Origin: an archaeon
GTDB lineage: Archaea > Iainarchaeota > Iainarchaeia > Iainarchaeales > CSSED10-239
Direction of reading: 5' to 3'
DNA length: 31,317 nucleotides
Assembly (NCBI GenBank): GCA_041657425.1
Contig: JBBABY010000013.1
Coordinates: 1 to 31,317 of the forward strand
Made by a program: the position numbers and the translations under genes. Below, in pieces: positions 1 to 31,317 of this stretch; position 1 is the first letter of the stretch, and each line of letters begins with the position of its first letter. The notes under the pieces were generated by a model, which was not told the origin of the DNA, ran no database searches, and saw nothing but the letters and a program-made list of their open reading frames with translations.

Positions 1-1660
1 TTGGTTCAGAAATAATAAGTGGAGTATTTTCAGAATATATTCCTGCAATGGTTTCAATTATTGGAACAACTGTTTCCTGACCAACAAGCATCTTAGCAGT
101 CATCGTATAACTATTTGGTAGAGAATTAGTCTCTAATTTTATATTTGTATTTAATCCATCGTAAGATATAGATGTAAAATCAAATGTTGCACTATAATAT
201 GGGCATTTATGCGCATTTCCATCAAAAAGTGAAAGGTTACAAGTTCCACTTGGAGGGTTATAAAAATATAAATCTTTGTTTGTACTATTGCTTGAATATT
301 GTGCTAAATTACAACGCTCAACATTATTTTGTTCAAATGTAATTCCTGAATGACTAAGTATATCACTACAAATATTTAAATCAGAATCTGATTGAGGATT
401 ATTATATAAATCATTATATTTTTCTGAAATTTTAGTTTCATCAACATGATATATTCCAAAACCACCATAAGTGCTATCACCTCTTAAAAACATACAAGCA
501 TCTAGATTATTTGGATCATTAATATTTCTGTACCTATTCTCAACAATAAAATATTCTTGTTCACTCATATTGTTATTTCTTAAAATAACTGCGTCTGGAT
601 AATCGTTTATGCTTCTTAAACTTATTTCTTTATTGCTGTCTATTGTTAATTCTATTGGATTATGAATCCAATCTAAAAAATATCTTGACCAAACATCAAG
701 ATTAATGGGATTAATAAAACAATACCCCCTATTAGATTCGCTAATAGAATTATTCATCATTGTGACACCATTCATTGGGCCATTACTAGGTGCGCCATTA
801 GTTATTGAATATAAATCAAATAACCCAAGAATATGTGCAAATTCATGAGTTGCAAGTTCTATTGAAAAATTATTAAAATCAGATTGCGTACTTTTTTCTG
901 GGACAAATGCAACATTACCTAAATATTTTCCATCTACTGGATTAGAATTATATTGTTTTAATATTCTAGTTTGTGGCCATATTCCTATTGAAGAATTAAC
1001 GCCAACACCAGGATAAATTAAAATTACGCCATCTAATCTCTCATCATTATTATAATCATACTGTGTAAAATCAACATACGGATCAAATAAATTCATAGAA
1101 TGTATTGCTAATTGAAATTCAGTCGCTGCATTATCAGCATAATATGAAAATGGATGTGGTGCTTCTCTCCAATCATAAACATCAAAAATAATATTTAAAT
1201 CTCCATAGGATTGCTTTGTATAGTATTTGCTTACGCTTATTCCAGAATATCCTGGAATAGAATAATTATTACTGTTAAATGCGTTGTTGATATCTGCCCA
1301 TGAAGTTAAAGATGAGTTCCTATCTGAAAATTTTACTAACAATACTGGTATCTTTATTGTCCCTGATAGTGGTGCAGTTCCCCAAAGATTTGAAACTCCT
1401 GAATTTCTATTTTTTGAGGCATTATTTCTTAATAACTGTTTATATTGTTCTGTGGTTATTCCCATTTCCTTTAGTAATACTTCTTCTGGGGGATAAAATA
1501 CATCTTGATAATTATTTATTCCTAAAGCGTCTATTTCTTCTACTTGTAAAACTTCTAAAGAATTAGACTCTGATTTTTCTGGATTTATAATTTCAGAAGC
1601 TGCAAATATATTTGATAATATTAATATAAAAAATATACCTAAAACAATTCTTGGATTCAT
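1..1660 (-). CDS. Secreted M6-like (immune inhibitor A type) zinc metalloprotease, paralog A; C-terminus runs off the window
   Basis: Absent from the ORF track because no stop lies in the window. Hand translation from ATG 1660 gives MNPRIVLGIFFILILSNIFAAS (Sec-type signal), then ATHEFAHILGLFDLY (HExxH plus LGLxDLY as in peptidase M6), then TAKMLVGQETVVP. I translated the start and bases 298 to 2; the middle is inferred open because the track lists no minus-strand ORF there. Colinear with the 29467..31317 protein. Alternative in-frame ATG at 1678. Confidence 0.8.
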   Translation of the reverse strand, partial: MNPRIVLGIFFILILSNIFAASEIINPEKSESNSLEVLQVEEIDALGINNYQDVFYPPEEVLLKEMGITTEQYKQLLRNNASKNRNSGVSNLWGTAPLSGTIKIPVLLVKFSDRNSSLTSWADINNAFNSNNYSIPGYSGISVSKYYTKQSYGDLNIIFDVYDWREAPHPFSYYADNAATEFQLAIHSMNLFDPYVDFTQYDYNNDERLDGVILIYPGVGVNSSIGIWPQTRILKQYNSNPVDGKYLGNVAFVPEKSTQSDFNNFSIELATHEFAHILGLFDLYSITNGAPSNGPMNGVTMMNNSISESNRGYCFINPINLDVWSRYFLDWIHNPIELTIDSNKEISLRSINDYPDAVILRNNNMSEQEYFIVENRYRNINDPNNLDACMFLRGDSTYGGFGIYHVDETKISEKYNDLYNNPQSDSDLNICSDILSHSGITFEQNNVERCNLAQYSSNSTNKDLYFYNPPSGTCNLSLFDGNAHKCPYYSATFDFTSISYDGLNTNIKLETNSLPNSYTMTAKMLVGQETVVPIIETIAGIYSENTPLIISEP

Positions 1661-1753
1661 AAATAGATTATAAATCATTGGGTTTTTAAATATTAACTCA
1701 ATTGATTTTCTAATTATCTTATCTAAATAAATATTATAAATCTATTCGTTTAT

Positions 1754-1840: not shown

Positions 1841-1869
1841 AAGATGTGTTTTTTTATTATTCACATCTT
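1841..1869 (-). terminator. Hairpin overlapping the stop codon of the 879-aa gene
   Basis: AAGATGTG (1862..1869 on minus) pairs with CACATCTT (1841..1848), an 8-bp stem with a 13-nt A-rich loop, followed by AAAATTTT. Function uncertain. Confidence 0.2.
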
Positions 1870-4507
1870 ATCTAAACTTTAGTGGTTTATAATTTGTTTG
1901 TATTGGACAATATTCAAATATATTTGTCCAAGATGTTACCTTAGAAACATTCCAATTACTTATATTTTGATTAAAACTTGTGGCCCAAAACATAAACGCC
2001 ATATTTGTAACCTTCGAAGTATCCCAATTACTTATATCTTGATTAAAGGCATAAGCCAATTGAAACATACTACTCATGTCTATAACTTTTGAAGTATTAA
2101 AATCTAAAGGTTGATTAAAATTAGATGCCCCCACAAACATAGCAGACATATTCATTACATTTGAAGTGTTAAAATCTAGTGGTTGATTAAAGTCAGTAGC
2201 GTTGCGAAACAGGGCAAACATAGAACTTACCTTTGAAGTATCAAAATTTAAAGGCTGATTAAAACTAGACGCTCCCGCAAACATAGCGTCCATATTAATT
2301 ACATTTGAAGTGTTAAAATCTAATGGTTGATTAAAACTAGAAGCAGAATAAAACATGTTATCCATATAAGTTACATTTGAAGTATCAAAATTTAAAGGCT
2401 GATTAAAACTAGATGCCTCTTCAAACATATTTGACATAGCCGTAACATTTGAAGTATCCCATTCGTTTATTCTTGGAATATCCGTTAATGACCAACATCC
2501 ACTAAACATATAAGACATATCTGTAATTTCACTTGTATCTAAAATATCTGTTGCAGTTATAATTAAATTACTTGCATTAGAAAAATCTCCGTTTTGACCT
2601 AGTATTAAAGATCCCCATTGAGAGATTTCTTCTATCTTTAAAGCATCTAATGTATACTTTAAATCACGATTATAAAATTGGAATCCATCAATCGTTCCTG
2701 TTATTGTTACTGTGTATACTCCTGGAACACTATAAGTATGTACACCCTGTCCTGAATATACTCCGTTGTTTTCAAACAATTCTCCAGAAGTTACATGAGA
2801 GGTTGTTCCGTCTCCCCAATCAACTATAAAATCATAATTTCCACTAGATATTAAAGGCAAAATAATCTGATTATTTTCGCTTGATCCAGATCCATCATAA
2901 TTTGTATCCCATTTAGAAATAAATGATAAAGATGAAGGGACTATTTCTTCTGAATCTGTTCTTAAATATGGATACCCATTATTAATTGTAGAATTTATAT
3001 CCCACACATTTACAAAATCCCAATTATTAAATGTAATTTTTTGTTTCATTTGGGAAGTTGTCTTACCTAATCCAATTACAGAATTTTGCTGATTAGAACT
3101 CTCAGTGTCCCAAAAATTATTAGTAGATGCTATAAGATTTTTACCACCACCATATGTGTGTCCAGCCATATTTAATCCAATAACTAACCCTGTAGAATAA
3201 GTATTTATTACGGTTGAGTTTCCCATAATCCCTATTAATCCTGCAGTTGCATTATCTCCTGTAACGCTTCCTGTTGCATAACTATTATATATATTCCCGC
3301 TTGTTAAATATCCAACTAATCCTCCGACAGTATGAATCCCATTCACATCTCCTGTTGCATAACTTTTTGAAATTATTGAAGTTAAATAAGGACCATTGTT
3401 AAAAGTGCCTATTAATCCCCCAATCCAATCTGCTCCTGTAACTTGACAACTAGAACTAGATCTTGAAATATTTCCATAACCTGCCCCAATTAATCCTCCA
3501 ATTGCAACACCACTTTTTCCTCCAGAAACTATCCCTGTCACATGAACATTATCAATTAAAGAATATTCTACTATTTGTCCAACTAAACCTCCAACAAACA
3601 TATTTCCACTTATTTTTATATCCTCTAAAAATAAATTTTTTATTGTTGCATCCTCTATTGCACTAAATAAACCAACATCACTATTTTCTGGGGTATCTAT
3701 TGTTAAATTTGTAATCCTATGATTATCGCCATCAAAAAAACCAGTAAATCTCTCTACTCCCGATTCTCCTATTGGTATAAAATCTACACCAGATAAATTT
3801 ATATCTGCACCTAAAATATATTCTCCTGATAACACTGTTCTTATCACTTCTAAATCATCTGCATTACAAATTACAAACTTTTCTATATCTTCATTAAAAC
3901 CTGATACACAAATGTCTATTTGCGAACAATCAGAGGGACAAGAATCAATAGTCTCTCCTGCATCACATTCTAAATCAAAATTACATTGATTTACAGAACA
4001 ATCAGAGGGACAAGAATCAATAGTCTCTCCTGCATCACCATCACAATCTCCATTCCCACAAGTAAAAAATCCTACACCACAATCTTCCGAACAATTAAAA
4101 CCTGTTTCTCCAAGGTCTGAATTACAAGTGCCATCTCCACAAAAAGGAACAGGATCTCCATCTCCACCACCGCCAGTTCCATCATCATCTCCACCGGTTC
4201 CTCCACCGCCAGTGCCACCGTTACCACCACTACCACCAGCGCTAGTGCCTCCTCCGGTTGCCATGTTTGTTTGATCTACACCATCATAAATAATTGATTT
4301 ATCAAAACTACTTTCTATGTCGCTTGTCTTATTATTGTCTTGCTTTGACCCTGAAGAACCAGTTATCTTTTCTCTTATACTTCCAAAATATAAAGCTCCA
4401 AAAATTATTACTCCAATAACTAATACACCAAATATTAATAACACTTCTAAAGCTGCTTGTCCTTTCTTTGTTACTTTCTTATGTTTTGTTTTATTCATAA
4501 ATATCAT
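1868..4507 (-). CDS. Large surface adhesin with class III (type IV pilin-like) signal peptide, Gly spacer, CPxDC cysteine modules, GLUG motifs and DUF285/BspA-type repeats
   Basis: 879-aa ORF. N-terminus (MIF)MNKTKHKKVTKKG|QAALEVLLIFGVLVIGVIIFGALYF. Gly-rich run GGGTSAGGSGGNGGTGGGG. Cysteine modules CGDGTCNSDLGETGFNCSEDC and CGNGDCDGDAGETIDSCPSDC. Repeated VGGLVGQ/IGGLIGAG/IGGLIGTF/VGGLVGYL motifs. DWGDGTTSHV..HTYSVPGVYTVTITG domain. At least 8 copies of FNQPL.F.TS.V..M..MF. ATG at 4507 or 4498. Confidence 0.85.
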   Translation of the reverse strand: MIFMNKTKHKKVTKKGQAALEVLLIFGVLVIGVIIFGALYFGSIREKITGSSGSKQDNNKTSDIESSFDKSIIYDGVDQTNMATGGGTSAGGSGGNGGTGGGGTGGDDDGTGGGGDGDPVPFCGDGTCNSDLGETGFNCSEDCGVGFFTCGNGDCDGDAGETIDSCPSDCSVNQCNFDLECDAGETIDSCPSDCSQIDICVSGFNEDIEKFVICNADDLEVIRTVLSGEYILGADINLSGVDFIPIGESGVERFTGFFDGDNHRITNLTIDTPENSDVGLFSAIEDATIKNLFLEDIKISGNMFVGGLVGQIVEYSLIDNVHVTGIVSGGKSGVAIGGLIGAGYGNISRSSSSCQVTGADWIGGLIGTFNNGPYLTSIISKSYATGDVNGIHTVGGLVGYLTSGNIYNSYATGSVTGDNATAGLIGIMGNSTVINTYSTGLVIGLNMAGHTYGGGKNLIASTNNFWDTESSNQQNSVIGLGKTTSQMKQKITFNNWDFVNVWDINSTINNGYPYLRTDSEEIVPSSLSFISKWDTNYDGSGSSENNQIILPLISSGNYDFIVDWGDGTTSHVTSGELFENNGVYSGQGVHTYSVPGVYTVTITGTIDGFQFYNRDLKYTLDALKIEEISQWGSLILGQNGDFSNASNLIITATDILDTSEITDMSYMFSGCWSLTDIPRINEWDTSNVTAMSNMFEEASSFNQPLNFDTSNVTYMDNMFYSASSFNQPLDFNTSNVINMDAMFAGASSFNQPLNFDTSKVSSMFALFRNATDFNQPLDFNTSNVMNMSAMFVGASNFNQPLDFNTSKVIDMSSMFQLAYAFNQDISNWDTSKVTNMAFMFWATSFNQNISNWNVSKVTSWTNIFEYCPIQTNYKPLKFR
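1900..2540 (-). repeat. Coding tandem array of about 72-nt (24-aa) DUF285-type units with a 144-nt higher-order repeat
   Basis: tttgaagtatcaaaatttaaaggctgattaaaactaga occurs identically starting at 2232 and 2376 (144 nt apart). Protein repeats are SSFNQPL(N/D)F(D/N)TS(N/K)V..M..MF. Array boundaries are approximate. Confidence 0.8.
3924..4038 (-). repeat. 43-bp perfect direct repeat (2 copies, 72-nt period) inside the cysteine-module region
   Basis: gaacaatcagagggacaagaatcaatagtctctcctgcatcac occurs at 3924..3966 and again at 3996..4038. It encodes the duplicated DAGETIDSCPSDCS peptide. Confidence 0.9.
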
Positions 4508-4598: not shown

Positions 4599-5324
4599 TT
4601 ACTTCTTCCAATAATCATCAAAATGAGATGTTAATGCTTTCATTAAACTTGGATTGTTTTTTAAAATTGTTAAATGATATGTTTCTTTTGGCATTGATAA
4701 ATCGTTTAATGACATAACTACTTTATTTTTATCAATAATAAAAGCATCCATTGAATGTTCTCTTTCTTGCATTGTGAAATTCTTTGGAAGATCGTATTGC
4801 TTAGTGTTTGGCTTTGATATTAATTTTACTGCTAAATCTGGTTTATCATAAATACTTTTAAAAGCATCTATTCTTTCATCAAAATGTGTAAAACCAGTTA
4901 TCTCTTTTTTTGCGCCTTCAAATTCTTGAGATAATAATTTATTATAATCTTTTAAACTTTTTACTTGTAATATCTTTTCTTGAGCACCATTTACTTGACC
5001 TGCCCAAATTTCTTTACTTAAAACTTCTTTAACGTGTTTATCAAGAACTGATAATTGATTTTGCTTTGCATCTAAAAGATATTTAAAAATCTCAGTTGGG
5101 TCTATTACCTTATATTTTTTAGGTCTACCATATACTTCTAGAACAAGACCTTTCTCTTTTAGTTTATCTAAAACATCGTAAATTCTGGTCTTTGGAATTT
5201 CTGCATTTCTACTAATATGTGGAGCATCTGCTTCTACAAAATTAAATAAAGTAGTTAATGTTCTTGCCTCATATTCTGTAAGACCAAAATCTAATAACAA
5301 ACTTAATATTTTACTATTTTGCAT
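4599..5324 (-). CDS. TrmB-family transcriptional regulator (N-terminal winged HTH plus C-terminal domain)
   Basis: 241 aa. GLTEYEARTLTTLFNFVEADAPHISRNAEIPKTRIYDVLDKLKEKGLVLEVYGRPKKYKVIDP resembles the TrmB wHTH. The C-terminus ends ..LMKALTSHFDDYWKK. GTGA motif 7 nt upstream of the ATG. Confidence 0.75.
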   Translation of the reverse strand: MQNSKILSLLLDFGLTEYEARTLTTLFNFVEADAPHISRNAEIPKTRIYDVLDKLKEKGLVLEVYGRPKKYKVIDPTEIFKYLLDAKQNQLSVLDKHVKEVLSKEIWAGQVNGAQEKILQVKSLKDYNKLLSQEFEGAKKEITGFTHFDERIDAFKSIYDKPDLAVKLISKPNTKQYDLPKNFTMQEREHSMDAFIIDKNKVVMSLNDLSMPKETYHLTILKNNPSLMKALTSHFDDYWKK

Positions 5325-5366: not shown

Positions 5367-6383
5367 CTATTCTTTTGCTTCTGTTTTTTCAGATTTCTCT
5401 GATTTTACATGCTTTTCTGCTTTCGCATGTGCTTCTGCTTTCGCATGTGCTTCTGCTTTTGCAGGAGCTTCTGTTGCTACAGGGGCATCTACAGGCTTAT
5501 TTTCTGTTGTTGCTGCAGGAGCAACAGCAGCTGCAGGAGTAATTAATGATGGCCTTCTTACATATGGTCTTCTAGGAGCATCGCCAGTTGGTCTTCTACC
5601 GCCAACTGTTGGTTTTCTGCCAGCTAATGCTTTAGCAGAAACTTTTCTAACTCTCTTTCCTGGAAGAGGTTGTTCTTCATCAACTTCCTTTTCTCCATTT
5701 TCGCTATTATAAACTAAGTCTTCAACAGAATATGCATAATCTTTATCTGATTTTATTATTCCATTTTTTAATTCTAATTCTCTAATTAATAACCAAAAGA
5801 ATAATGCTACTGATTTTCTTCCTTTGTTATTATATGGTACAATTAAATCAATGTTTCTTGTGTTACTTGAAGTAGTACATAAACCAATAACTGGAATATT
5901 TGCAGTTGTTGCTTCAACAATTGCTTGTCTATCAACATTAGGATCTGCAATAAATACTAATTTTGGTTCTATGAAATGTTCTGATTCAGGGTTTGTGAAT
6001 GTTCCTGGAATAAATCTATTTAATTTTGATTTGTAACCAAATGTTTGTTCAAGGATTTTAACTCCTGGAAGTGCATATTTCTTTCTTGAAATAAAAACAA
6101 TATCTGTTGGTTCATATTTAGAAATAAAATCGATTGCAATTTTTATTCTCTTATCAATTATTTGAACATCCATTACATTAATTTTATCACTTCTTGATTT
6201 AAAAACAAATTTACGCATTGGACCGTTTTTATATTTTGTTCCAATATGTATTCCGTTCTTTAGATATAAATCAACATTAACAAGAGTTCTATTTTGTGTT
6301 CTGTTTTCTGTTGGTCTATTCTCAGTTGGTGTTTCTTTAACTGTTCTTGGTTTTATAGTTGTATTCTCCATTTTTATCCACAT
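5367..6383 (-). CDS. rps2: 30S ribosomal protein uS2 with long N- and C-terminal low-complexity extensions
   Basis: Core NGIHIGTKYKNGPMRKFVF..IVFISRKKYA..VFIADPNVDRQAIVEATTANIPVIGLCTTSS matches uS2. It is preceded by TENRPTENRTQNRT and followed by about 100 aa of Pro/Ala/Lys-rich tail with (AKAEAH) repeats. Second ATG at 6371 is also possible. Confidence 0.9.
   Translation of the reverse strand: MWIKMENTTIKPRTVKETPTENRPTENRTQNRTLVNVDLYLKNGIHIGTKYKNGPMRKFVFKSRSDKINVMDVQIIDKRIKIAIDFISKYEPTDIVFISRKKYALPGVKILEQTFGYKSKLNRFIPGTFTNPESEHFIEPKLVFIADPNVDRQAIVEATTANIPVIGLCTTSSNTRNIDLIVPYNNKGRKSVALFFWLLIRELELKNGIIKSDKDYAYSVEDLVYNSENGEKEVDEEQPLPGKRVRKVSAKALAGRKPTVGGRRPTGDAPRRPYVRRPSLITPAAAVAPAATTENKPVDAPVATEAPAKAEAHAKAEAHAKAEKHVKSEKSEKTEAKE
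5417..5460 (-). repeat. 18-bp tandem repeat (about 2.4 copies) encoding AKAEAH units in the uS2 tail
   Basis: ctgctttcgcatgtgctt occurs at 5417..5434 and 5435..5452, then a partial copy ctgctttt at 5453..5460. Confidence 0.9.
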
Positions 6384-7838: not shown

Positions 7839-7889
7839 TCGCGTTCAAACGCGAAAACTACTGCGCGCGAGCCTAGCGAAACAGGCTCA
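7839..7889 (-). other. GC-rich structured element immediately 3' of tRNA-Leu (candidate trailer/processing element or small RNA)
   Basis: By hand count, 28 of 49 nt (about 57% GC) across 7841..7889, in a window that is very AT-rich by eye. Hairpins GAGCCT-N8-AGGCTC (7869..7888) and TCGCG-N6-CGCGA (7839..7854), plus GCGCGC at 7863..7868. Confidence 0.3.
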
Positions 7890-7971
7890 TGCTGGGGACA
7901 GGATTCGGACCTGCGAAGCACTAAGCACTGGATCTTAAGTCCAGCCCCTTTGACCGCTCGGGAACCCCAGC
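7890..7971 (-). tRNA. tRNA-Leu (anticodon UAA), no encoded CCA
   Basis: Minus strand GCTGGGGTTCCCGAGCGGTCAAAGGGGCTGGACTTAAGATCCAGTGCTTAGTGCTTCGCAGGTCCGAATCCTGTCCCCAGCA. It has a 7-bp acceptor stem GCUGGGG/CCCCAGC, an anticodon arm CUGGA-CUUAAGA-UCCAG, a long variable arm (class II) and a T arm GCAGG-UCCGAAU-CCUGU. Confidence 0.9.
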
Positions 7972-7982
7972 AAAAGATTAAA

Positions 7983-24783: not shown

Positions 24784-24813
24784 GAAAAAAAGACCTCTAT
24801 CTAATAGAGATCT
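24784..24813 (-). terminator. Stem-loop plus oligo-T directly after, and overlapping, the stop of the 658-aa gene
   Basis: Minus strand AGATCTCTAT-TAG-ATAGAGGTCT (10-bp stem with one G-U pair; 24791..24813), followed by a T run of 6-7 and CCTTTCCTTTT. Confidence 0.45.
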
Positions 24814-26788
24814 AACTTTGGAGGGTACATCCGCTAATCAAAAATGTCTTTGAAAATCGTGATCCTGTTTTTATATCATAGGTTGTCATATTTATTTTTA
24901 TATTTGTTGGGGCCGTGCCTTTTGTAAAATCGCTAGTTATCCAAATTGGTGTTGGTGTCTGGCGATAGTTATAATTACCAGGAATACAACCAGTAGTTGG
25001 ATCTGATTCTAATCCTACATTTGCACACCAGTAATAATATCCTGCAGATTGTGTTGAAAACCAGGCATTATATTGCACATGGATATTATAAGTAGTAGAA
25101 GTAAAAGGGACAATTCCTGGCACAACTGTGTAAGTGCAAGCTTGCTGAGAAATATCTATATCCGATGAATTATTATAGAAGTTCATAATTGTTGCAGCCG
25201 CTCTAGCTTTATTAGAACTAGGATTAGCTAAATTCGTATATATTACCAAAATTCCTTTCTTCGTAGTCATTTTTTTAATATGTATCCTTTTTGTTAATGA
25301 ACCACTGCTATCTGTAGTTACTGTAAAATTATTACTTAAAGTTTCTCCAATTGTAGCTCCTACTATTGCTGATGACAAATCAGAACAATCAGACCAACCT
25401 GAAGGATCTGAATAACCTAGATATTCGTGCTCAGAATCGCTATAACCCATAGTACATTCTTTAATTGTAACTTTATAATTTTGATTTGGACCTCCAGAAC
25501 TTAATCGAAGATCTATTGGCACATATTTACCTATACCAATGTGTCTTCTATCTGGTCTGTAAGAACTATTTTGAGTGTAATCAGGAAATGGTGCATAATC
25601 AAATACTTTATAGCCAACTTCTGGTGGATATGTTGAAGAATATTCTGCTCCTGTTTTTCTCTCCCAAGTTGAATCAAATGTCTGATATGTAAGTAAATTT
25701 CTAAAAGCAAATGCTCCGAAATTATTAGATGCATAAATTGGCACATAATAAGTGTTACCATTACCATCATAAATCATATAGTATTTTCCAGTTACGGCAG
25801 TAAGTCCCGAAGCAGAATTATCTGTTTCTAAACTACCTATTCTATTTCTTAAATCTGAGCTTAAATGATCTATTTCGATACTTTCATTACTAATATCTAA
25901 ATATTCATTTGTAACATTAGTTATATTAAACTGCAAATTATCAAGATAAGTCATAACCTCTTCAGAAAAATGATTTAAATTAATTGCTCCAATTGCTATA
26001 TTATCTCCAATTATTGCGCCAGACTTTAATTTTATTTTTCCTGCGGTTTGTGAATATTGAGTTCCATTAATATAACATCCTGCATTTGGACAGGCAGTAA
26101 ATTGAGTAGGCAAAAAATCACTTAAAACAAGGCCTGATCCCCCTGTACCATTATTGATAGGTGTCCATACATAACTTCCTGACGACACATCAGAAGAAGA
26201 ACATTGTTTTAAAACACCGTCTACTACCATTATGTCCCCCTTACTATTAGAATTACAAATCCCCTGCGTACCTTCAATTTTTGACGTTAATTTATCAGCG
26301 CCAATTACATTTTCTGTAACATTTGGATTTGGCAAAACTATTGTTGTTTCAAGTAAATATGAAGGAGATGTATCTTGCTTTATTTTAACTTTAAAGTCTA
26401 ATGTAGTTGTGGTAGTTATTGGTGCAATAAAACCAGTAATTATTCCGTTCTTTAATCCACTTTTAATTAACTCTGCAGTTAAATTACTATTACTATAGAC
26501 TATCTGATTATTAGGAGAATAAATTTCTAAAGTACAGCCACTTGGAGCAACAGCAAAAAATAATTTTTCAAATAAATTACCTTGAGATAAATTGCCTCCA
26601 ATACCAGTATCATTTGTTGATGTTCCTGAACTCCAAGTTCCTGTTCCGCCAGAACAAGCCGCGTTTAACGCAGGAGTTATTACTAAATCACCAGTTATAC
26701 GATACTGTTTTGTTATAGATCCTGCAAAGATTAAATTTAAAGACAATAGTCCAATTACTAAAATTAATAATGTTTTTGAAATTTTCAT
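24812..26788 (-). CDS. Secreted protein of unknown function (658 aa, Sec-type signal peptide)
   Basis: MKISKTLLILVIGLLSLNLIFAG|S is a signal peptide. GGTGA lies 8 nt upstream of the ATG. The protein is Ser/Thr/Asn/Gly-rich with many Cys, and I recognise no family signature. Confidence 0.75.
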   Translation of the reverse strand: MKISKTLLILVIGLLSLNLIFAGSITKQYRITGDLVITPALNAACSGGTGTWSSGTSTNDTGIGGNLSQGNLFEKLFFAVAPSGCTLEIYSPNNQIVYSNSNLTAELIKSGLKNGIITGFIAPITTTTTLDFKVKIKQDTSPSYLLETTIVLPNPNVTENVIGADKLTSKIEGTQGICNSNSKGDIMVVDGVLKQCSSSDVSSGSYVWTPINNGTGGSGLVLSDFLPTQFTACPNAGCYINGTQYSQTAGKIKLKSGAIIGDNIAIGAINLNHFSEEVMTYLDNLQFNITNVTNEYLDISNESIEIDHLSSDLRNRIGSLETDNSASGLTAVTGKYYMIYDGNGNTYYVPIYASNNFGAFAFRNLLTYQTFDSTWERKTGAEYSSTYPPEVGYKVFDYAPFPDYTQNSSYRPDRRHIGIGKYVPIDLRLSSGGPNQNYKVTIKECTMGYSDSEHEYLGYSDPSGWSDCSDLSSAIVGATIGETLSNNFTVTTDSSGSLTKRIHIKKMTTKKGILVIYTNLANPSSNKARAAATIMNFYNNSSDIDISQQACTYTVVPGIVPFTSTTYNIHVQYNAWFSTQSAGYYYWCANVGLESDPTTGCIPGNYNYRQTPTPIWITSDFTKGTAPTNIKINMTTYDIKTGSRFSKTFLISGCTLQS

Positions 26789-26856: not shown

Positions 26857-28407
26857 TTATTCTGTAACATATACTGTTAATGTTCCATAAGGATTAGTAG
26901 TAGTTCCTGATGATTGATCAGCATATACTTTTAATAGGCCATAACCATTATTTTGCCAATAATCTGTATTATATCCTAATCCCCCCATTGGTAATGCACA
27001 AGCTTGAAGAACTCCATAACCTGATGCAAAACTATTACAATTACCTGATTTAAATAATAAATCATAACCTACATAAAAAAGTGTATATTTTCCATTAAAT
27101 ATTGCATTTACTGGTTTTAGATTATCTTGTGATTGATACATTGCTTTTGGACAAGTTGTAGGAAGTAATTTATAATACACATTTGTTCCATTTACAATAT
27201 CATAACCGGAAATTGCTCTAGTCAAATCAATATTACAATTAATACTGTCTGTAAAAGTAATAGTGGGATTTGTTAATAAATTTTGAGTCATACTTGCGAT
27301 TTTTATATTAAATTCTTCTCCAACATATTGAGTTGGGGGATTTATAGTTAAATAAGCCACAGTTGGATCAGATTTATAAATATTAATCATTTTCTCATCT
27401 TTGCTTTGAATAGAAATTCCATCTATTACTTTTGTGGCATATACTATTACTTTCTGTTCTCCTATAATTTCTGGCAAAGTTAATGTAGCTAAATCAAAAG
27501 AATAATTACAAGACTTATCTACAGATACAAATCTATCTCCAATATGCCATTCACAAGAAATTCCGGTAGTTCCAAAATCAAGTTCTGTAGCAGTTAATTG
27601 GATACTTTGATTATTAAAATATGCTTGTCCTTCAATTGGGCTAGTGATTGAAATATTAAAAACTGGAGTTGGTGGTGGAGGAATTAACCCAGAAGTGATT
27701 ATTTTAGTAATTGCCCCAGATAATGTTGGAGTTGTTAATTCATTTGGGGTAACTCCCGAAAATGAAAATGTATATGTTCCGGGAGTTTTACAAGTAAAAT
27801 CAAATGTATTCTCAATAGATCCTGCTGGAATCGTTTGATTTAATCTTCCTAAATTAGTAAATGTATTATTATATACTCCATTATAAGAACAATTTGAAGT
27901 TGGAGACCCTGTAGAATCAGAGATATCTAATTTGCCAACATTTCCTAAATCATAACTTGAATTCGCAACTTTTACTTTTATTCCAAAACTCGCATCTATT
28001 GCCGAATTTCCTGTTGGATCTAATGTTAATTGTAAAGTTGCAAAATCTGGTATTGTATCAGGGCAGTCTATTGGACAAGATCCATAATTTTCCGAAGGAG
28101 GTAAACAAAGACCATCTCCACAGCTACAATCATCTGGACAATTGCCATTATCTTCTCCTAATGAAGTTTCACAATTACCATTTCTATTACAAATTACTGA
28201 TGGAATGTTTGGAACATTTGGATGACCTGTTCCATCACCTAACTGATCTTCAAAACCATCAAGGACGCTTGCAACTTTTGAACTATCAGAAATATTTTTA
28301 TTTATACTACTAATATAATATGCTCCAAAAACTATTGAACCAATTACAACTACCCCAAGAATTGCTAAAACTTCAATAGAAACTTGTCCTTTTTTTCCTG
28401 ATAACAT
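26857..28407 (-). CDS. Surface protein with class III (type IV pilin-like) signal peptide and CPxDC cysteine modules (516 aa)
   Basis: MLSGKKG|QVSIEVLAILGVVVIGSIVFGAYY fits the QxSxExxxL-type class III signal. It is followed by CNRNGNCETSLGEDNGNCPDDCSCGDGLCLPPSENYGSCPIDC, a PPPP linker and beta-rich Ig-like segments. AGGTG upstream. Confidence 0.8.
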   Translation of the reverse strand: MLSGKKGQVSIEVLAILGVVVIGSIVFGAYYISSINKNISDSSKVASVLDGFEDQLGDGTGHPNVPNIPSVICNRNGNCETSLGEDNGNCPDDCSCGDGLCLPPSENYGSCPIDCPDTIPDFATLQLTLDPTGNSAIDASFGIKVKVANSSYDLGNVGKLDISDSTGSPTSNCSYNGVYNNTFTNLGRLNQTIPAGSIENTFDFTCKTPGTYTFSFSGVTPNELTTPTLSGAITKIITSGLIPPPPTPVFNISITSPIEGQAYFNNQSIQLTATELDFGTTGISCEWHIGDRFVSVDKSCNYSFDLATLTLPEIIGEQKVIVYATKVIDGISIQSKDEKMINIYKSDPTVAYLTINPPTQYVGEEFNIKIASMTQNLLTNPTITFTDSINCNIDLTRAISGYDIVNGTNVYYKLLPTTCPKAMYQSQDNLKPVNAIFNGKYTLFYVGYDLLFKSGNCNSFASGYGVLQACALPMGGLGYNTDYWQNNGYGLLKVYADQSSGTTTNPYGTLTVYVTE

Positions 28408-28474: not shown

Positions 28475-29503
28475 TTATTTATTCATTTCTTGAGTTGGAA
28501 TTAATTTCTTTTCTGCCTTAACTTTATTATTATTTTTTCTTGTAATTGTATAATTTTCAGTCATAAGCTCACTAGATTCCCAAATTATTGTTGCTTCTAA
28601 TAAATCTGATAGACTCTTTACACTAGCTGTACCTCTATTATCTAATGGACTTCCAAATGTAGGACCTACATAAAGATATGCTTTTGCTTTTAATGTTTTT
28701 GATGAACTTATTGTTATTGGACTGGTGTATGTTTGACTTGTTCTTAAATTTGGAATACTCCCATCAAGAGTATACTTTATTATTGCACCTTCTGTTTCAG
28801 TCATTAACTCCACAGTTATTGGTTGAGAATAATTTCCTCCATCAATGCTTGCTTCTGGTGGATATACTGCTGGACTATTTGTAACAGTAACTGTATAATT
28901 TCGTGTGCCAGTTACTGAACTTACTGTATAGTTTACTGAATTAATAAAACTTTGAGAGATCCCACTTTCTGGATAAACAGTACACCCCTCTTCAACTATT
29001 ATTATTGGAGTTAAACCACTTCTATTTACTCCGTATGGAATGATTATATTTATTATATTGTAATCATTATTTATTACTGTTTGACTTTCTACTTCTTGAA
29101 AAGTAAAACTTAATATTAAGTTTTGTGGAGCGTTACCTGTAGTATAATTGTAAGTTACTACTTGGCTTGGTGCATATCCTGTTTTGTATGCAATTAAATT
29201 TAAAGTAAAATTATGATCTATCATTATTGGGGCGGCATATATTGTTGAAAACTCATTTGGAGTTGTTCCATTTATTGTGTATCTAATTGTTGCGCCTGCA
29301 GTTGTAGTATACGCTTCAGTTATAGTTCCATAATTATAATATCCTGATTGAAGAGTGGATATTGGATTGTTTACAACTAATACTTGATAATTATAAGTTG
29401 CTGTTGCACTTGGCTCGTAACCTGTCTTGTAAGCTTTTGCTTTAATATTTGTTGTTTGAAAAATATTTATTGCTGTTGAATAAATGCTTGATGATTCAGT
29501 TGG
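28475..29503 (-). CDS. C-terminal remainder of the M6-like protease paralog B, in the -1 frame (CHB_HEX_C-like repeats); not an independent gene
   Basis: The frame is open from 29503 to the stop at 28475. Hand translation gives PTESSSIYSTAINIFQTTNIKAKAYKTGYEPSATATYNY..AGATIRYTINGTTPNEFSTIYAAPIMIDHNF... This continues the repeat interrupted at 29504. The track's ATG at 29224 is an internal Met. Confidence 0.7.
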   Translation of the reverse strand, partial: PTESSSIYSTAINIFQTTNIKAKAYKTGYEPSATATYNYQVLVVNNPISTLQSGYYNYGTITEAYTTTAGATIRYTINGTTPNEFSTIYAAPIMIDHNFTLNLIAYKTGYAPSQVVTYNYTTGNAPQNLILSFTFQEVESQTVINNDYNIINIIIPYGVNRSGLTPIIIVEEGCTVYPESGISQSFINSVNYTVSSVTGTRNYTVTVTNSPAVYPPEASIDGGNYSQPITVELMTETEGAIIKYTLDGSIPNLRTSQTYTSPITISSSKTLKAKAYLYVGPTFGSPLDNRGTASVKSLSDLLEATIIWESSELMTENYTITRKNNNKVKAEKKLIPTQEMNK

Positions 29504-31317
29504 CTACTGTTATCCAGAGTATATCTGATTGTTGCACCAGATGTTGCTGTGCTTAAAATTACTTGACTATTATAATCTATTACTCCAGAAACCTGATTTG
29601 CTGTTGGAGTTGCAACTGTTCCAGTAACTGTATAAACACTTGTCATTACATCACTAACATAAAAATTATTTTTTTTAGCAATTGCTTTTATTGTTGTTAC
29701 TGCATTAGCAGGAGCAGTTATTGGGGTTGTATAAATGGATGATGAAGTTGTTGGAGTGCTTCCATTTGTAGTATAATAAATTGTTGCGCCAGGAGTTGAT
29801 GTACTTAAAGTTATTTGAGTTGGAACATAATACACTTGAGCCGAAGATGGGCTAGTTACTGGAGTTGCCGTTTCTTCACCAACAAGCATCTTTGCAGTCA
29901 TTATTGATTGATTAGATGAAGAAATTGCTGTAAACCTTATCTTTGGATTTTGAACACCACTATACGTACTAGTTGTTCTATCCAAAATCCCGTATGGTGC
30001 ACACAAATATTGGTTTTCATCGAAATATTTAAATGAATCACAACTATTTATTATGTCATCAAAATATAAATCATTTGGGAAAATTAAAATACTTGTAGAA
30101 TTAATTGTATTTTCTTCATATAATACTCCTGGCCAAGAAACTGTATCATTAAAATAATTATTATCTCTATCCCAGTTTACCCAATTGTTTGGATAGTCAA
30201 ATTCAATTTTGTTTTCATCAACATGATAGATTGCAAATCCACCATAAGTGGTTGGAGCATTAATAAACATACAATTGTCTAAATTACTAGAATCGCTATG
30301 ATTTCTATAACGATTTTCAATTATAAAATATTCTCTTGCACCCATATTGCTATTTCTTAAAATCACTGCGTCTGGATAATCGTTTATACTTCTTAGACTT
30401 ATTTCTTTATTGCTGTCTGTTGTTAATTCTATTGGAGCAACCCAACCTAAAAAATATCTAGACCAAACATCAAGATTAATTGGCTTATTTAAACAATATA
30501 CTTCTTCAAACATCATCATTGACATTCCTGACAATGGACCATTATCTATCTGCCCTTGTGGGCCAATAGCATACAAATCTGGAAGACCAAGAACGTGTGC
30601 AAACTCATGAGTAGTTACAGAGATTTCAAATTGATTTGATTGTCTTACTCCCTTTTCTGGAACTAGTGCTACATTCCCTAGATATTTCCCGTCTACTATA
30701 TTTTGAGTATATTGTTTTAATATTCTAGTGTGTGGCCAAACAGCAGTTGGTGCAATTCCCCCAACACCTGGATAAATTATAACAAATCCATCTATTCTTC
30801 CATCATTGTCATTATCATATTGACTAAAATTAACATTACTGCCGCCAGTAGTGGAATTAAATAAATTTATAGAATCTAATACTAATTGAAAATTTCTAGA
30901 ACTGTTTAAACTATACCAAGAATAGGTTTGCGGTGCAGTTCGCCAATCGTAAACATCATAAATAATATTTAAATCTCCATAGGATTGCTTTGTATAATAT
31001 TTGCTTACACTTATTCCTTGGCCATTTAAATAATTAGAACTATTAAATGATTCATTTATTGCGCTTTGTGTTTGAGTAGACAGATTGTCTGTAAATTGAA
31101 CTAGAAGAACCGGGATATGTATTGTCCCTGTTAATGGAGCAGTTCCCCAAATGTTTGTTACACTTGAATTACGATTTATTGGAGCTTTCCTTTTTAATAA
31201 TTGTTTATAAGTTCTTAAATTTAAACCTTGCTTTCTTAATTCGCTTTCTGGAGGATATAAAACATCATTATATTTCTCTAGAACAGTCATTGCATTATCT
31301 TCTGAACCCTTTGTTAT
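29467..31317 (-). CDS. M6-like zinc metalloprotease paralog B. The N-terminus runs off the window, and the reading frame is broken at about 29503 by a 1-nt frameshift
   Basis: TTHEFAHVLGLPDLY (HExxH), colinear with paralog A. The frame stays open upstream of the track's Met (ITKGSEDNA-MTVLEKY), and no signal peptide is in the window. C-terminal GATIYYTTNGSTPTTSSSIYTTPI repeats resemble chitobiase/hexosaminidase C-terminal domains. Confidence 0.8.
   Translation of the reverse strand: MTKGSEDNAMTVLEKYNDVLYPPESELRKQGLNLRTYKQLLKRKAPINRNSSVTNIWGTAPLTGTIHIPVLLVQFTDNLSTQTQSAINESFNSSNYLNGQGISVSKYYTKQSYGDLNIIYDVYDWRTAPQTYSWYSLNSSRNFQLVLDSINLFNSTTGGSNVNFSQYDNDNDGRIDGFVIIYPGVGGIAPTAVWPHTRILKQYTQNIVDGKYLGNVALVPEKGVRQSNQFEISVTTHEFAHVLGLPDLYAIGPQGQIDNGPLSGMSMMMFEEVYCLNKPINLDVWSRYFLGWVAPIELTTDSNKEISLRSINDYPDAVILRNSNMGAREYFIIENRYRNHSDSSNLDNCMFINAPTTYGGFAIYHVDENKIEFDYPNNWVNWDRDNNYFNDTVSWPGVLYEENTINSTSILIFPNDLYFDDIINSCDSFKYFDENQYLCAPYGILDRTTSTYSGVQNPKIRFTAISSSNQSIMTAKMLVGEETATPVTSPSSAQVYYVPTQITLSTSTPGATIYYTTNGSTPTTSSSIYTTPITAPANAVTTIKAIAKKNNFYVSDVMTSVYTVTGTVATPTANQVSGVIDYNSQVILSTATSGATIRYTLDNSSQLNHQAFIQQQ

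Follow-up and report, generated by a model that had tools for sequence, protein, structure and literature searches.

A class III signal-like N-terminus joined to an adhesin-like modular cargo in a gene of an uncultured archaeon

The stretch of DNA analysed here (the window, 31,317 nucleotides of an archaeal contig) carries on its minus strand one intact, unbroken open reading frame of 879 amino acids (1868..4507 in the ORF list of the window), so that the mosaic gene described in an earlier note stands as a single coding sequence. The database start is the second Met, at position 4498, which yields a product of 876 aa that matches P0001 (NCBI MFA5746321.1) exactly. From N- to C-terminus the protein consists of a leader, a hydrophobic helix, a Gly-rich linker, three Cys modules, a GLUG beta-helix, a WGDG domain and eight DUF285/PARCEL repeats. 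The features on which the following argument draws are:

1868..4507, minus strand: whole gene, modular surface protein of 879 aa (ORF list; exact match to P0001).
4460..4507, minus strand: basic leader, residues 1-16 ending KKG, with a predicted class III cleavage site at G16/Q17 (sequence; Pfam Class_IIIsignal in register).
4361..4459, minus strand: hydrophobic stretch predicted to open the mature protein as a helix, residues 17-49 (QAALEVLLIFGVLVIGVIIFGALYFGSIREKIT; Glu at +5) (only hydrophobic segment; AlphaFold).
4142..4360, minus strand: conserved post-helix segment (KQDNN..SIIYDG), then Gly-rich flexible linker, residues 50-122 (family alignment; pLDDT about 30).
3926..4141, minus strand: three short 4-Cys modules (C..C..GE..C..DC), residues 123-194 (regex; common to a second window protein).
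2963..3886, minus strand: GLUG / Peptidase_M26_N-like right-handed beta-helix, residues about 208-515 (Pfam; PDB match; model; Foldseek).
2588..2938, minus strand: WGDG beta domain, PKD/Fn3-like, residues about 524-640 (shared with P0131; weak PKD_4 and PamR matches).
1871..2587, minus strand: eight 24-aa DUF285/PARCEL repeats forming a solenoid, conserved tail CPIQTNYKPLKFR (DUF285; TIGR02167; stacked repeats; model).
4599..5324, minus strand: TrmB-family regulator directly upstream of the 879-aa gene (Pfam TrmB 5.8e-19).
26857..28407, minus strand: paralogous 516-aa protein with the same cassette (MLSGKKG/QVSIEVL..., two Cys modules) and unrelated cargo (BLASTP; Class_IIIsignal).

P0001 is publicly named 'BspA family leucine-rich repeat surface protein [archaeon]'. 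A Pfam scan of the 879-aa protein returns no LRR family at E<=1 and the repeats are of the DUF285/PARCEL type, so that we reject a BspA-type LRR (Pfam LRR_5) identity; nor is an LRR indicated by structure, the Foldseek match to LGR4 (E 7.5) lying at chance level. A search for full-length homologues was dominated by multi-GLUG proteins and recovered no full-length homologue. Structure prediction by AlphaFold from the single sequence was uninformative (pLDDT 41), and with an alignment of GLUG and DUF285 slices it recovered just two domains.

The TrmB gene is part of a recurrent arrangement. The order S2, TrmB, class III protein is common to loci L001, L006, L007 and L013, the same slot is held by the relatives P0131, P0170 and P0135, and in related genomes the slot reads S2-TrmB-...-dCMP deaminase with cargoes other than the one found here. 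TrmB is thus a conserved neighbour of a variable class III slot, and may have a regulatory role there. M6-type metallopeptidase genes flank the region, and Rfam and tRNA scans of the window detected a tRNA-Leu only.

The N-terminus reads MIFMNKTKHKKVTKKG/QAALEVLLIFGVLVIGVIIFGALYFGSIR (here and below, a slash marks a predicted cleavage site). A basic leader ending ...KVTKKG/QAALE, with K-G at -2/-1, Gln at +1 and Glu at +5 (Q17, E21), runs into a helix of about 33 aa that is the sole hydrophobic segment of the 879-aa protein and that AlphaFold places at residues 11-46 (P0001 numbering; pLDDT 72-81). KGQ with +1 Gln and +5 Glu is a hallmark of EppA-processed Methanococcus pilins (review PMC4371748), and the sequence marks of an EppA-substrate-type class III signal are present: a leader ending in [KR]-[GA] before a hydrophobic segment, Gln at +1 and an acidic residue at +5. 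The archaeal class III layout that had been proposed for this N-terminus is therefore borne out, in its EppA-substrate form. The Pfam Class_IIIsignal profile gives a more qualified answer: it aligns exactly in register, over residues 14-38, yet at E 0.011 and 16.1 bits it falls below its gathering cut-off of 23.7. A FlaFind-like rule, run on all six-frame ORFs of the window, picks only three of them, namely the 879-aa protein, the 516-aa protein and one antisense artefact. We regard the pilin-type reading of the N-terminus as well supported but unproven.

What follows the helix does not resemble a pilin. No globular pilin domain is detected there by profiles, and residues 47-200 are modelled at a pLDDT of about 30-45. 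The poly-Gly spacer seen earlier is indeed present, and of the three Cys modules reported behind it two conform strictly to CxxGxC..GE..CxxDC (residues 123-143 and 150-170, by regex), while the third is an off-pattern variant (residues 175-194, CNFDLEC...CPSDC). Pfam has no model that matches these modules, which we read as a disulfide-stabilised stalk. A TafF match (E 0.003) falls within the low-complexity linker and was discounted.

Word-indexed searches gave the impression that this design is unique: the N-terminal 220 aa retrieved just two homologues, both matching through the Cys modules, and a 51-column N-terminal alignment retrieved none. An exhaustive HMMER search with the N-terminal cassette overturned that impression, returning 540 proteins at E<=1e-3. 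Among the best 150 of these 540, most match via the Cys-module part of the profile and 20 match from their own N-terminus. The further cassette proteins, about 20 in number, span 77-685 aa; several are fragments, and those that look complete measure 145 to 685 aa. The N-terminal relatives include a protein from a Woesearchaeota MAG.

All 22 family members keep the motif [KR][GA]/Q-x3-E, although their leaders measure anything between 5 and 26 aa. When the family is aligned, no column but Gln +1 and Glu +5 is invariant (L, G, G, F and G are near-invariant); part of this is to be expected, since Q and E were already built into the search profile. Class_IIIsignal matches nine of the 22 at E<=0.01 (best 1.8e-5) and, in addition, a small homologue in L002 at 8.6e-5. 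A family-like neighbour protein in L006 has its Glu at +4 (SKG/QALEM). Cargo, by contrast, varies: DUF285 occurs in 6/22 members, the others carrying CHB_HEX_C, PKD or unassigned sequence. The family is lineage-specific, its N-terminal cassette being kept and its cargo exchanged. The 516-aa paralogue matches the N-terminal 115 aa at a BLASTP E of 2e-13 (Class_IIIsignal E 0.03), and P0191 (561 aa) shares the paralogue's N-terminal cassette and, by eye, its C-terminal end. The closest relative of the 879-aa protein, P0131, shares 57% identity with it over residues 524-876 and 45% over the N-terminus and has no GLUG block, so that, as far as sequence comparison goes, the main difference between the two is an extra GLUG module. 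P0017, an archaeal GLUG protein of 1324 aa, has a pilin-like N-terminus by eye that Pfam does not confirm, and it carries no weight in the argument.

Where might the machinery for such a signal reside? Neither a Peptidase_A24/EppA prepilin peptidase nor T2SSE or T2SSF genes were found within the 31-kb window, in which SecY and an EMC3-like protein are the sole polytopic membrane proteins; because of this, cleavage and filament display can only be inferred for the protein itself. In another archaeal MAG (L004), a T2SSE ATPase gene and two T2SSF genes are directly followed by genes of 180 and 162 aa that start MKKTKKGQAALEF and MKRGQSAFEF, one of them nearly identical to the KKGQAALE start described above. 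These small proteins are called pilins by motif and context alone, with no Pfam match. One ATPase with two platform genes is, according to a 2026 preprint, the 'system 1' layout of methanogens and some DPANN archaea, and the L004 gene set fits it; for the 879-aa protein this is indirect evidence. Around the small family members in L002 and L009, the neighbours are a KaiC-like ATPase and ScpAB, with no pilus genes adjoining.

On these grounds we consider it probable that the gene encodes a cell-surface and likely adhesive protein, exported and held through a class III (prepilin-type) signal of EppA-substrate, or 'system 1', type. The basic leader and hydrophobic helix would insert the precursor with its N-terminus in and its cargo out. 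A class III signal peptidase would then cut after KKG, as motif and conservation suggest, to leave a new N-terminal Gln with Glu at +5. The helix of about 33 aa might subsequently hold the protein in the membrane, in the manner of the Sulfolobus bindosome subunits; alternatively, it might pack into a filament core like that of a type IV pilus, the 879-aa protein then being a minor or tip subunit. The Gly-rich linker and three disulfide-knotted modules would form a stalk, and this stalk would display the GLUG beta-helix, the PKD-like beta domain and the DUF285/PARCEL solenoid, folds supported by model and homology, as presumptive ligand-binding surfaces. The filament reading is weakened by the lack of a globular pilin domain behind the helix, such as solved pilins and PilB possess. 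Of the earlier proposal that this is a filament-displayed or membrane-anchored adhesin, the adhesin-like domains are real, but the pilin head that one would look for in a filament subunit is absent.

One might suppose instead that the N-terminus is never cut: the protein would be a type II membrane protein held by an uncleaved signal-anchor, with the KKGQ...E motif inherited from an ancestor and its processing lost. Several of the observations above sit comfortably with such an anchor, among them a single long hydrophobic segment (about 25-30 aa, longer than a Sec h-region), a window without peptidase or pilus genes, the missing pilin head domain and the sub-threshold class III match in Pfam. 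However, if the helix served as an anchor only, there would be no reason for G or A at -1, Gln at +1 and a Glu within the helix to persist in 22/22 members while the leader varies freely, nor would we expect the same type of N-terminus on the small genes of the L004 pilus operon. We therefore think an uncleaved anchor unlikely, and favour a processed class III signal.

The case for an adhesive function rests on the cargo. In the GLUG part, Pfam Glug matches at 2e-9 (37.6 bits, cut-off 20.5; three stretches) and Peptidase_M26_N at 1.1e-10 (41.6 bits, cut-off 27.7). At least five GLUG motifs had been reported; a regex recovers four GG[LI][VI]G motifs plus one AGLIG, although Pfam counts only the three stretches. 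A phmmer search of PDB sequences matches the N-domain of IgA1 protease (6e-10), and the GLUG part is modelled as a beta-helix at pLDDT >90 with Foldseek matches to 3n6z, 6xja and 7uvk; by phmmer and Foldseek alike, it resembles the N-domains of IgA1 proteases, which are non-catalytic. The WGDG domain had likewise been recognised correctly: the WGDG sequence lies at about residue 565, similarity to PKD is weak (PKD_4, E 0.83) and model confidence is low, and the domain is collinear with bacterial P0008 and P0011. A match to the CPR pilus protein PamR (NF058578; 25.9 bits, E 4e-6, against a requirement of >=300) reflects local beta-domain similarity confined to residues 535-605, and we do not accept that identity. 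In the C-terminal repeats, DUF285 (PF03382) matches at E 1.3e-65 (219 bits, cut-off 25) and the TIGR02167 PARCEL repeat at 9e-27 (92.3 bits, cut-off 30; seven stretches); these matches, like those of the GLUG part, lie far beyond chance. Stacked by eye, one FSG-type and seven FNQ-type units give eight 24-aa repeats, in keeping with the at least eight claimed before; the underlying DNA has tandem periods of 72 and 144 nt (72-79% matches), and the solenoid is modelled at pLDDT 85-93. Judged from these domain families, the cargo appears adhesin-like.

Could it be an enzyme instead, either a ZmpA/IgA1-protease-like peptidase or a polysaccharide lyase or hydrolase built on a beta-helix scaffold? 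The Peptidase_M26_N and ZmpA profile matches, the pectate lyases and polygalacturonases that appear in the Foldseek list at weak E-values, and the flanking M6-type metallopeptidase genes would all be compatible with one. Yet the profile matches are confined to the non-catalytic N-terminal GLUG region, no catalytic domain is matched, an HExxH motif was sought in the 879-aa protein and is absent, and the pectate lyase matches do not exceed a TM-score of 0.26 at 11% identity. ZmpA/IgA1 protease (M26) itself is rejected, the ZmpA model scoring 37.9 bits against a cut-off of 3000 in the N-terminal region only and HExxH being missing. An enzymatic role thus seems very improbable to us, and an adhesin-like surface protein remains the preferred reading. 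Least credible of all is a Sec signal peptide of the usual kind, which signal peptidase I would cut to release a soluble secreted protein. A basic n-region with a hydrophobic stretch behind it does fit the Sec outline, but here that stretch is roughly double the normal length and includes a conserved acidic residue, and no small-x-small site comes after it. The evident Sec signals of other exported window proteins, which serve as an internal control, look quite different, being short and ending IFA/G or IFA/A (for example MKISKTLLILVIGLLSLNLIFA/GS and ...LILSNIFA/AS).

How does this architecture compare with known systems? Modular pilins that carry DUF285 or GLUG have already been described from bacteria, as have large class III proteins from archaea, and on present evidence the gene extends known designs and is not a new mechanism. 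In the bacterial modular pilins (S. sanguinis PilB/PilC, PMC8179133) a class III signal and helix likewise bear a bulky, presumed adhesive module; the published catalogue includes IPR012902-IPR005046 (DUF285) and IPR012902-IPR011493 (GLUG) combinations and one example of 860 aa (PMC8179133), and P0113, a bacterial N_methyl plus GLUG protein, has a modular pilin architecture. Set against the definition of a modular pilin (PMC8179133), the present protein has a signal-like N-terminus and GLUG/DUF285 cargo, but neither the IPR012902 motif nor a pilin module: its signal is of the archaeal KGQ/+5E type where the bacterial proteins have the IPR012902 N_methyl motif, a disordered linker and Cys modules stand in place of the pilin module, and three cargo modules are combined. 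With the EppA-processed pilins of M. maripaludis (EpdA-E; PF04021 Class_IIIsignal/DUF361) it shares K-G-Q-[VLI], Gln +1, Glu +5 and the helix; those are small and have a pilin domain, whereas this protein has 879 aa and unrelated cargo and scores below the Pfam cut-off.

The Sulfolobus bindosome proteins and other large archaeal class III proteins offer a further parallel, being large non-pilin proteins with a borrowed prepilin-type signal. The bindosome proteins depend on prepilin peptidase and a PilB/PilC pair (PMC4371748; 2026 preprint), and archaeal T4P loci are noted to contain large proteins with such a signal, termed 'adhesin or minor pilin'; large FlaFind positives are likewise known in archaea. 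The bindosome proteins differ in carrying solute-binding cargo behind a PibD-type signal without +1 Gln, whereas Pfam finds no solute-binding domain here. Because large family members, large archaeal class III proteins and bacterial pilin fusions all exist, size is not exceptional for such a signal, contrary to what had first been supposed.

We tentatively entertain a more far-reaching possibility, namely that one lineage of small-genome archaea deploys 'plug-and-play' adhesins, in which a headless prepilin cassette (leader, Q+1/E+5 helix, short conserved segment and Cys stalk) would show swappable modules on, or at the tip of, a pilus-like filament. The cargo would be swapped at a fixed chromosomal hot spot beside TrmB, perhaps tuning the choice of partner or surface, and the 879-aa protein, with a GLUG beta-helix gained along the way, would stand as the most elaborate form. 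Few attachment proteins of uncultured small-genome archaea have been identified, and this gene with its about 20 relatives supplies concrete, testable candidates. If processing and display hold true, archaea would join bacteria in using the modular-pilin principle, and the exchanged cargoes would indicate what determines specificity.

The origin of the cargo can be viewed against two groups of bacterial proteins. P0011 and P0008 are GLUG-WGDG-DUF285 surface proteins, and P0011 can be aligned over residues 239-870 (265 bits), with one GLUG unit, the WGDG domain and the DUF285 repeats in the same order; unlike the archaeal protein, both use Sec signals, P0011 in addition a C-terminal T9SS sorting domain, and they have neither a class III signal nor a Cys stalk. 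The PARCEL/DUF285 lipoproteins of Mycoplasma (PMC2996958) are similar in that they, too, sit on the surface of small-genome organisms and carry tandem repeats, some 24-25 aa long, that DUF285 and TIGR02167 recognise, but are bacterial and lipid-anchored where the present protein has a prepilin-type helix and belongs to an archaeon. PARCEL repeats have a history of horizontal spread (PMC2996958), and there was no archaeal example among 2010 genomes (Roske et al. 2010, PMC2996958). The suggestion that domains were acquired from bacteria is plausible for the domain families, although codon composition bears no sign of a recent event: in a comparison of GC and GC3 by module, made with recent transfer of the GLUG block in mind, GC3 is low and host-like throughout (0.11-0.22). 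The C-terminal half, moreover, has as its nearest relative P0131, itself an archaeal family member, at 57% identity.

The modular surface protein with a pilin-like N-terminus (hereafter the target; MFA5746321.1) is encoded as follows:

1868..4507, minus strand: target ORF, 879 aa without interruption

The public record starts at the second Met (4498), giving 876 aa, under the name 'MAG: BspA family leucine-rich repeat surface protein [archaeon]'. The window has a G+C content of about 30%; an archaeal ribosomal-protein/SecY operon takes up most of it, and surface-protein genes lie towards either end. Motif scans and profile searches recovered every element that the earlier note had named for the target: two strict CxxGxC..GE..CxxDC modules plus one variant, GLUG-type motifs (four GG[LI][VI]G, one AGLIG), a Gly-rich linker, a WGDG segment and eight 24-aa repeats (seven FNQ-type, one FSG-type). 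Profile matches comprise DUF285 (E 1.3e-65), the TIGR02167 PARCEL repeat (9e-27), Peptidase_M26_N (1.1e-10) and Glug (2e-9), along with a weak Class_IIIsignal match (E 0.011, 16.1 bits against a cut-off of 23.7) that aligns in register over residues 14-38. In the DNA, too, the DUF285 repeats stand in tandem (2088..2458), one period being 72 nt (5.2 copies with 72% matches) and the other 144 nt (2.6 copies with 79% matches), which suggests expansion by two-repeat units. A repetitive 64-aa ORF (1898..2092) lies antisense to these repeats.

The N-terminus reads ...KVTKKG|QAALEVLLIFGVLVIGVIIFGALYFG, with Lys-Gly at -2/-1, Gln at +1 and Glu at +5. The same residues make up the processing motif of EppA-cut Methanococcus pilins (KGQV/KGQL/KGQI), where +1 Gln and +5 Glu are conserved (review PMC4371748). 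A second window protein (26857..28407, 516 aa) starts MLSGKKG|QVSIEVLAILGVVVIGSIVFGAYY and continues, after the signal, with two Cys modules of the target's kind and then unrelated cargo. The remaining exported proteins of the window have Sec signals of the usual short type, with IFA|G or IFA|A at their end, so that the organism has both signal kinds in use. Together with a pilus locus found elsewhere (L004, below), this paralogue and the contrast with the Sec signals raise the target's signal above a mere motif match.

Word-indexed searches had suggested that the architecture of the target was unique, a view overturned when 1.84 billion representative proteins were searched exhaustively by HMMER with the N-terminal cassette (basic leader, Q+1/E+5 helix, short conserved segment, Cys modules) of the two window proteins. 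This search returned 540 matches at E<=1e-3. Most of the best 150 align to the Cys-module part of the profile only, and Cys modules of this type are also found behind Sec or lipoprotein signals. In 20 of the best 150, the profile start aligns at the protein's own N-terminus; all 20 have [KR][GA]|Q-x3-E followed by a helix, with one or two Cys modules in many of them. Leader length spans 5 to 26 residues and protein size 77 to 685 aa, the shortest being fragments and complete-looking members starting at 145 aa. The signal motif is conserved across the family: in a 22-member alignment, +1 Gln and +5 Glu are the sole invariant columns, an invariance partly favoured by the search profile itself. 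Even so, a plain membrane anchor would not explain why a buried acidic residue and the residues at -1 and +1 have been kept. Pfam searches over the 22 members found Class_IIIsignal in nine (best 1.8e-5), DUF285 in six, PKD in two and CHB_HEX_C in one, so bulky cargo is normal with this signal in this lineage; the target is the longest member seen.

Scanning species-representative genomes with conserved N-terminal peptides yielded four loci. In one of these (L004), a T2SSE ATPase gene and two T2SSF platform genes are directly followed by genes of 180 and 162 aa that start MKKTKKGQAALEF and MKRGQSAFEF, respectively. The ATPase/platform layout equals that of archaeal TFF 'system 1', defined by one ATPase and two platform genes and present in methanogens and some DPANN archaea (2026 preprint). 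The target's type of N-terminus is hence tied to a pilus operon elsewhere. A Woesearchaeota MAG (L005) has a series of small genes with KKGQ-type starts. We also noted a small conserved protein in two genomes:

L002 9992..10423: 143-145-aa protein with a KKGQVSIE class III start
L009 3936..4373: the same protein

It has a PKD-like domain (Class_IIIsignal 8.6e-5), has a KaiC-like ATPase, transcribed divergently, on one side and ScpA/ScpB on the other, and is a candidate for the true pilin of the lineage.

The target's neighbourhood reads ...L13-S9-RpoN-S2-TrmB-[slot]-dCMP deaminase(-)-L7Ae-S28e, and three relatives share its slot:

L006: P0131, 514 aa
L007 (429-kb contig): P0170, 685 aa
L013: P0135, 507 aa

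Cargo is swapped within this syntenic slot. P0131 comprises signal, linker, two Cys modules, WGDG domain and DUF285 repeats (end ...CPIQTSYKPPKFR). Its identity with the target is 57% for residues 524-876 and 45% for the N-terminus, but it has neither the GLUG block of 310 aa nor a third Cys module. P0170 has another beta domain at that position, and the cargo of P0135 is wholly different. On the best reading of the comparison with P0131, either a P0131-like gene acquired a GLUG unit to become the target, or P0131 lost its own. GC and GC3 by module are uniformly low throughout the target, with no sign of recent foreign insertion. A TrmB-family regulator (4599..5324, minus strand) separates ribosomal protein S2 from the variable class III slot, an order found in all four genomes examined (window, L006, L007, L013); it is possibly dedicated to the surface-protein genes.

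Model and homology together show a modular cargo and its folds. An AlphaFold model built from aligned slices of homologues (876-aa numbering) has a helix at residues 11-46 (pLDDT 72-81), a beta-helix at 205-512 (above 90) and a solenoid at 655-868 (85-93); the WGDG domain is of low confidence, and the linker and Cys modules gave no confident structure (about 30-45). No globular pilin domain follows the helix. By Foldseek and phmmer, the beta-helix matches BACOVA_03286 (3n6z) and the non-catalytic N-domains of IgA1 proteases. Motif and profile searches found neither HExxH nor a catalytic-domain match, which makes a function as protease unlikely. Residues 239-870 of the target are collinear with two bacterial proteins from outside the family, P0011 (265 bits), which has a T9SS sorting tail, and P0008, so the GLUG-WGDG-DUF285 order also occurs behind bacterial Sec signals. 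Among the genomes of their time, Roske et al. (2010, PMC2996958) saw no DUF285 in archaea, and they made a case for horizontal spread; it is plausible that the cargo's domain families arose long ago in bacteria.

How might such a protein work? The precursor would insert into the membrane, a class III signal peptidase would cut after KKG, the helix would retain the protein at the cell, and the GLUG and DUF285 surfaces would mediate adhesion. The helix may become part of a filament, in the manner of a modular minor pilin, or it may remain in the membrane, the arrangement proposed for bindosome subunits. The +5 Glu speaks for contact with pilus machinery; the missing pilin head and long disordered linker fit tip-located and membrane-anchored placement alike. 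No prepilin peptidase, pilus ATPase or platform gene was found in the window, where SecY and an EMC3-like protein are the only polytopic membrane proteins.

The design principle is already known. Bacterial modular pilins join a pilin signal to DUF285 or GLUG, with one case of 860 aa (Raynaud et al. 2021, PMC8179133), and P0113 is a bacterial N_methyl-GLUG example. Large archaeal class III signal proteins are also known, namely bindosome solute-binding proteins and large FlaFind positives (PMC4371748 among sources), as are large 'adhesin or minor pilin' proteins with class III signals in archaeal T4P loci. What is new is an archaeal KGQ/+5E signal at the head of GLUG/DUF285 cargo, with no pilin domain in between, a conserved Cys stalk and a cargo-swapping hot spot adjoining TrmB. 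No description of the cassette family turned up in the literature searched.

Other window genes deserve mention. Adjoining the target is a Sec-signal protein that resembles M6-family metallopeptidases and is a paralogue of the M6-peptidase-like gene described below (2..1678, minus strand, continuing in L001 5891..9025); in that longer contig it has 1044 aa and several CHB_HEX_C/Fn3_assoc repeats. L006 and L007 have a CHB_HEX_C protein in the same slot, in reversed order relative to the class III protein. The called start of the one in L006 (5147..6772, plus strand) falls inside its helix; from an upstream ATG it reads MKIHKLTSKG|QALEMLVIFGVLVIGG, which is class III-like with Glu at +4 rather than +5, followed by a Cys module. 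Two minus-strand ORFs, 28475..29224 (249 aa, CHB_HEX_C) and 29467..31290 (607 aa, M6-peptidase-like), are one gene, frameshifted near 29,500-29,520, where another frame reads through ('...PTESSSIYSTAINIFQTTNIKAKAYKTGYEPS...'); the break marks a pseudogene or else stems from an assembly error. A 658-aa Sec-signal protein (24812..26788, minus strand) with no Pfam or NCBIfam match is encoded immediately downstream of the second class III protein, and the pair is adjacent on two further contigs (L010, L011). Ribosomal protein S2 (5367..6383, minus strand) has an N-terminal extension with a TENRP repeat and, at its C-terminus, a long tail of low complexity (…PAATTENKPVDAPVATEAPAKAEAHAKAEAHAKAEKHVKSEKSEKTEAKE). 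ARAGORN and Rfam detected a single RNA gene in the window, a tRNA-Leu(UAA) (7889..7972, minus strand), which lies within the ribosomal protein cluster.
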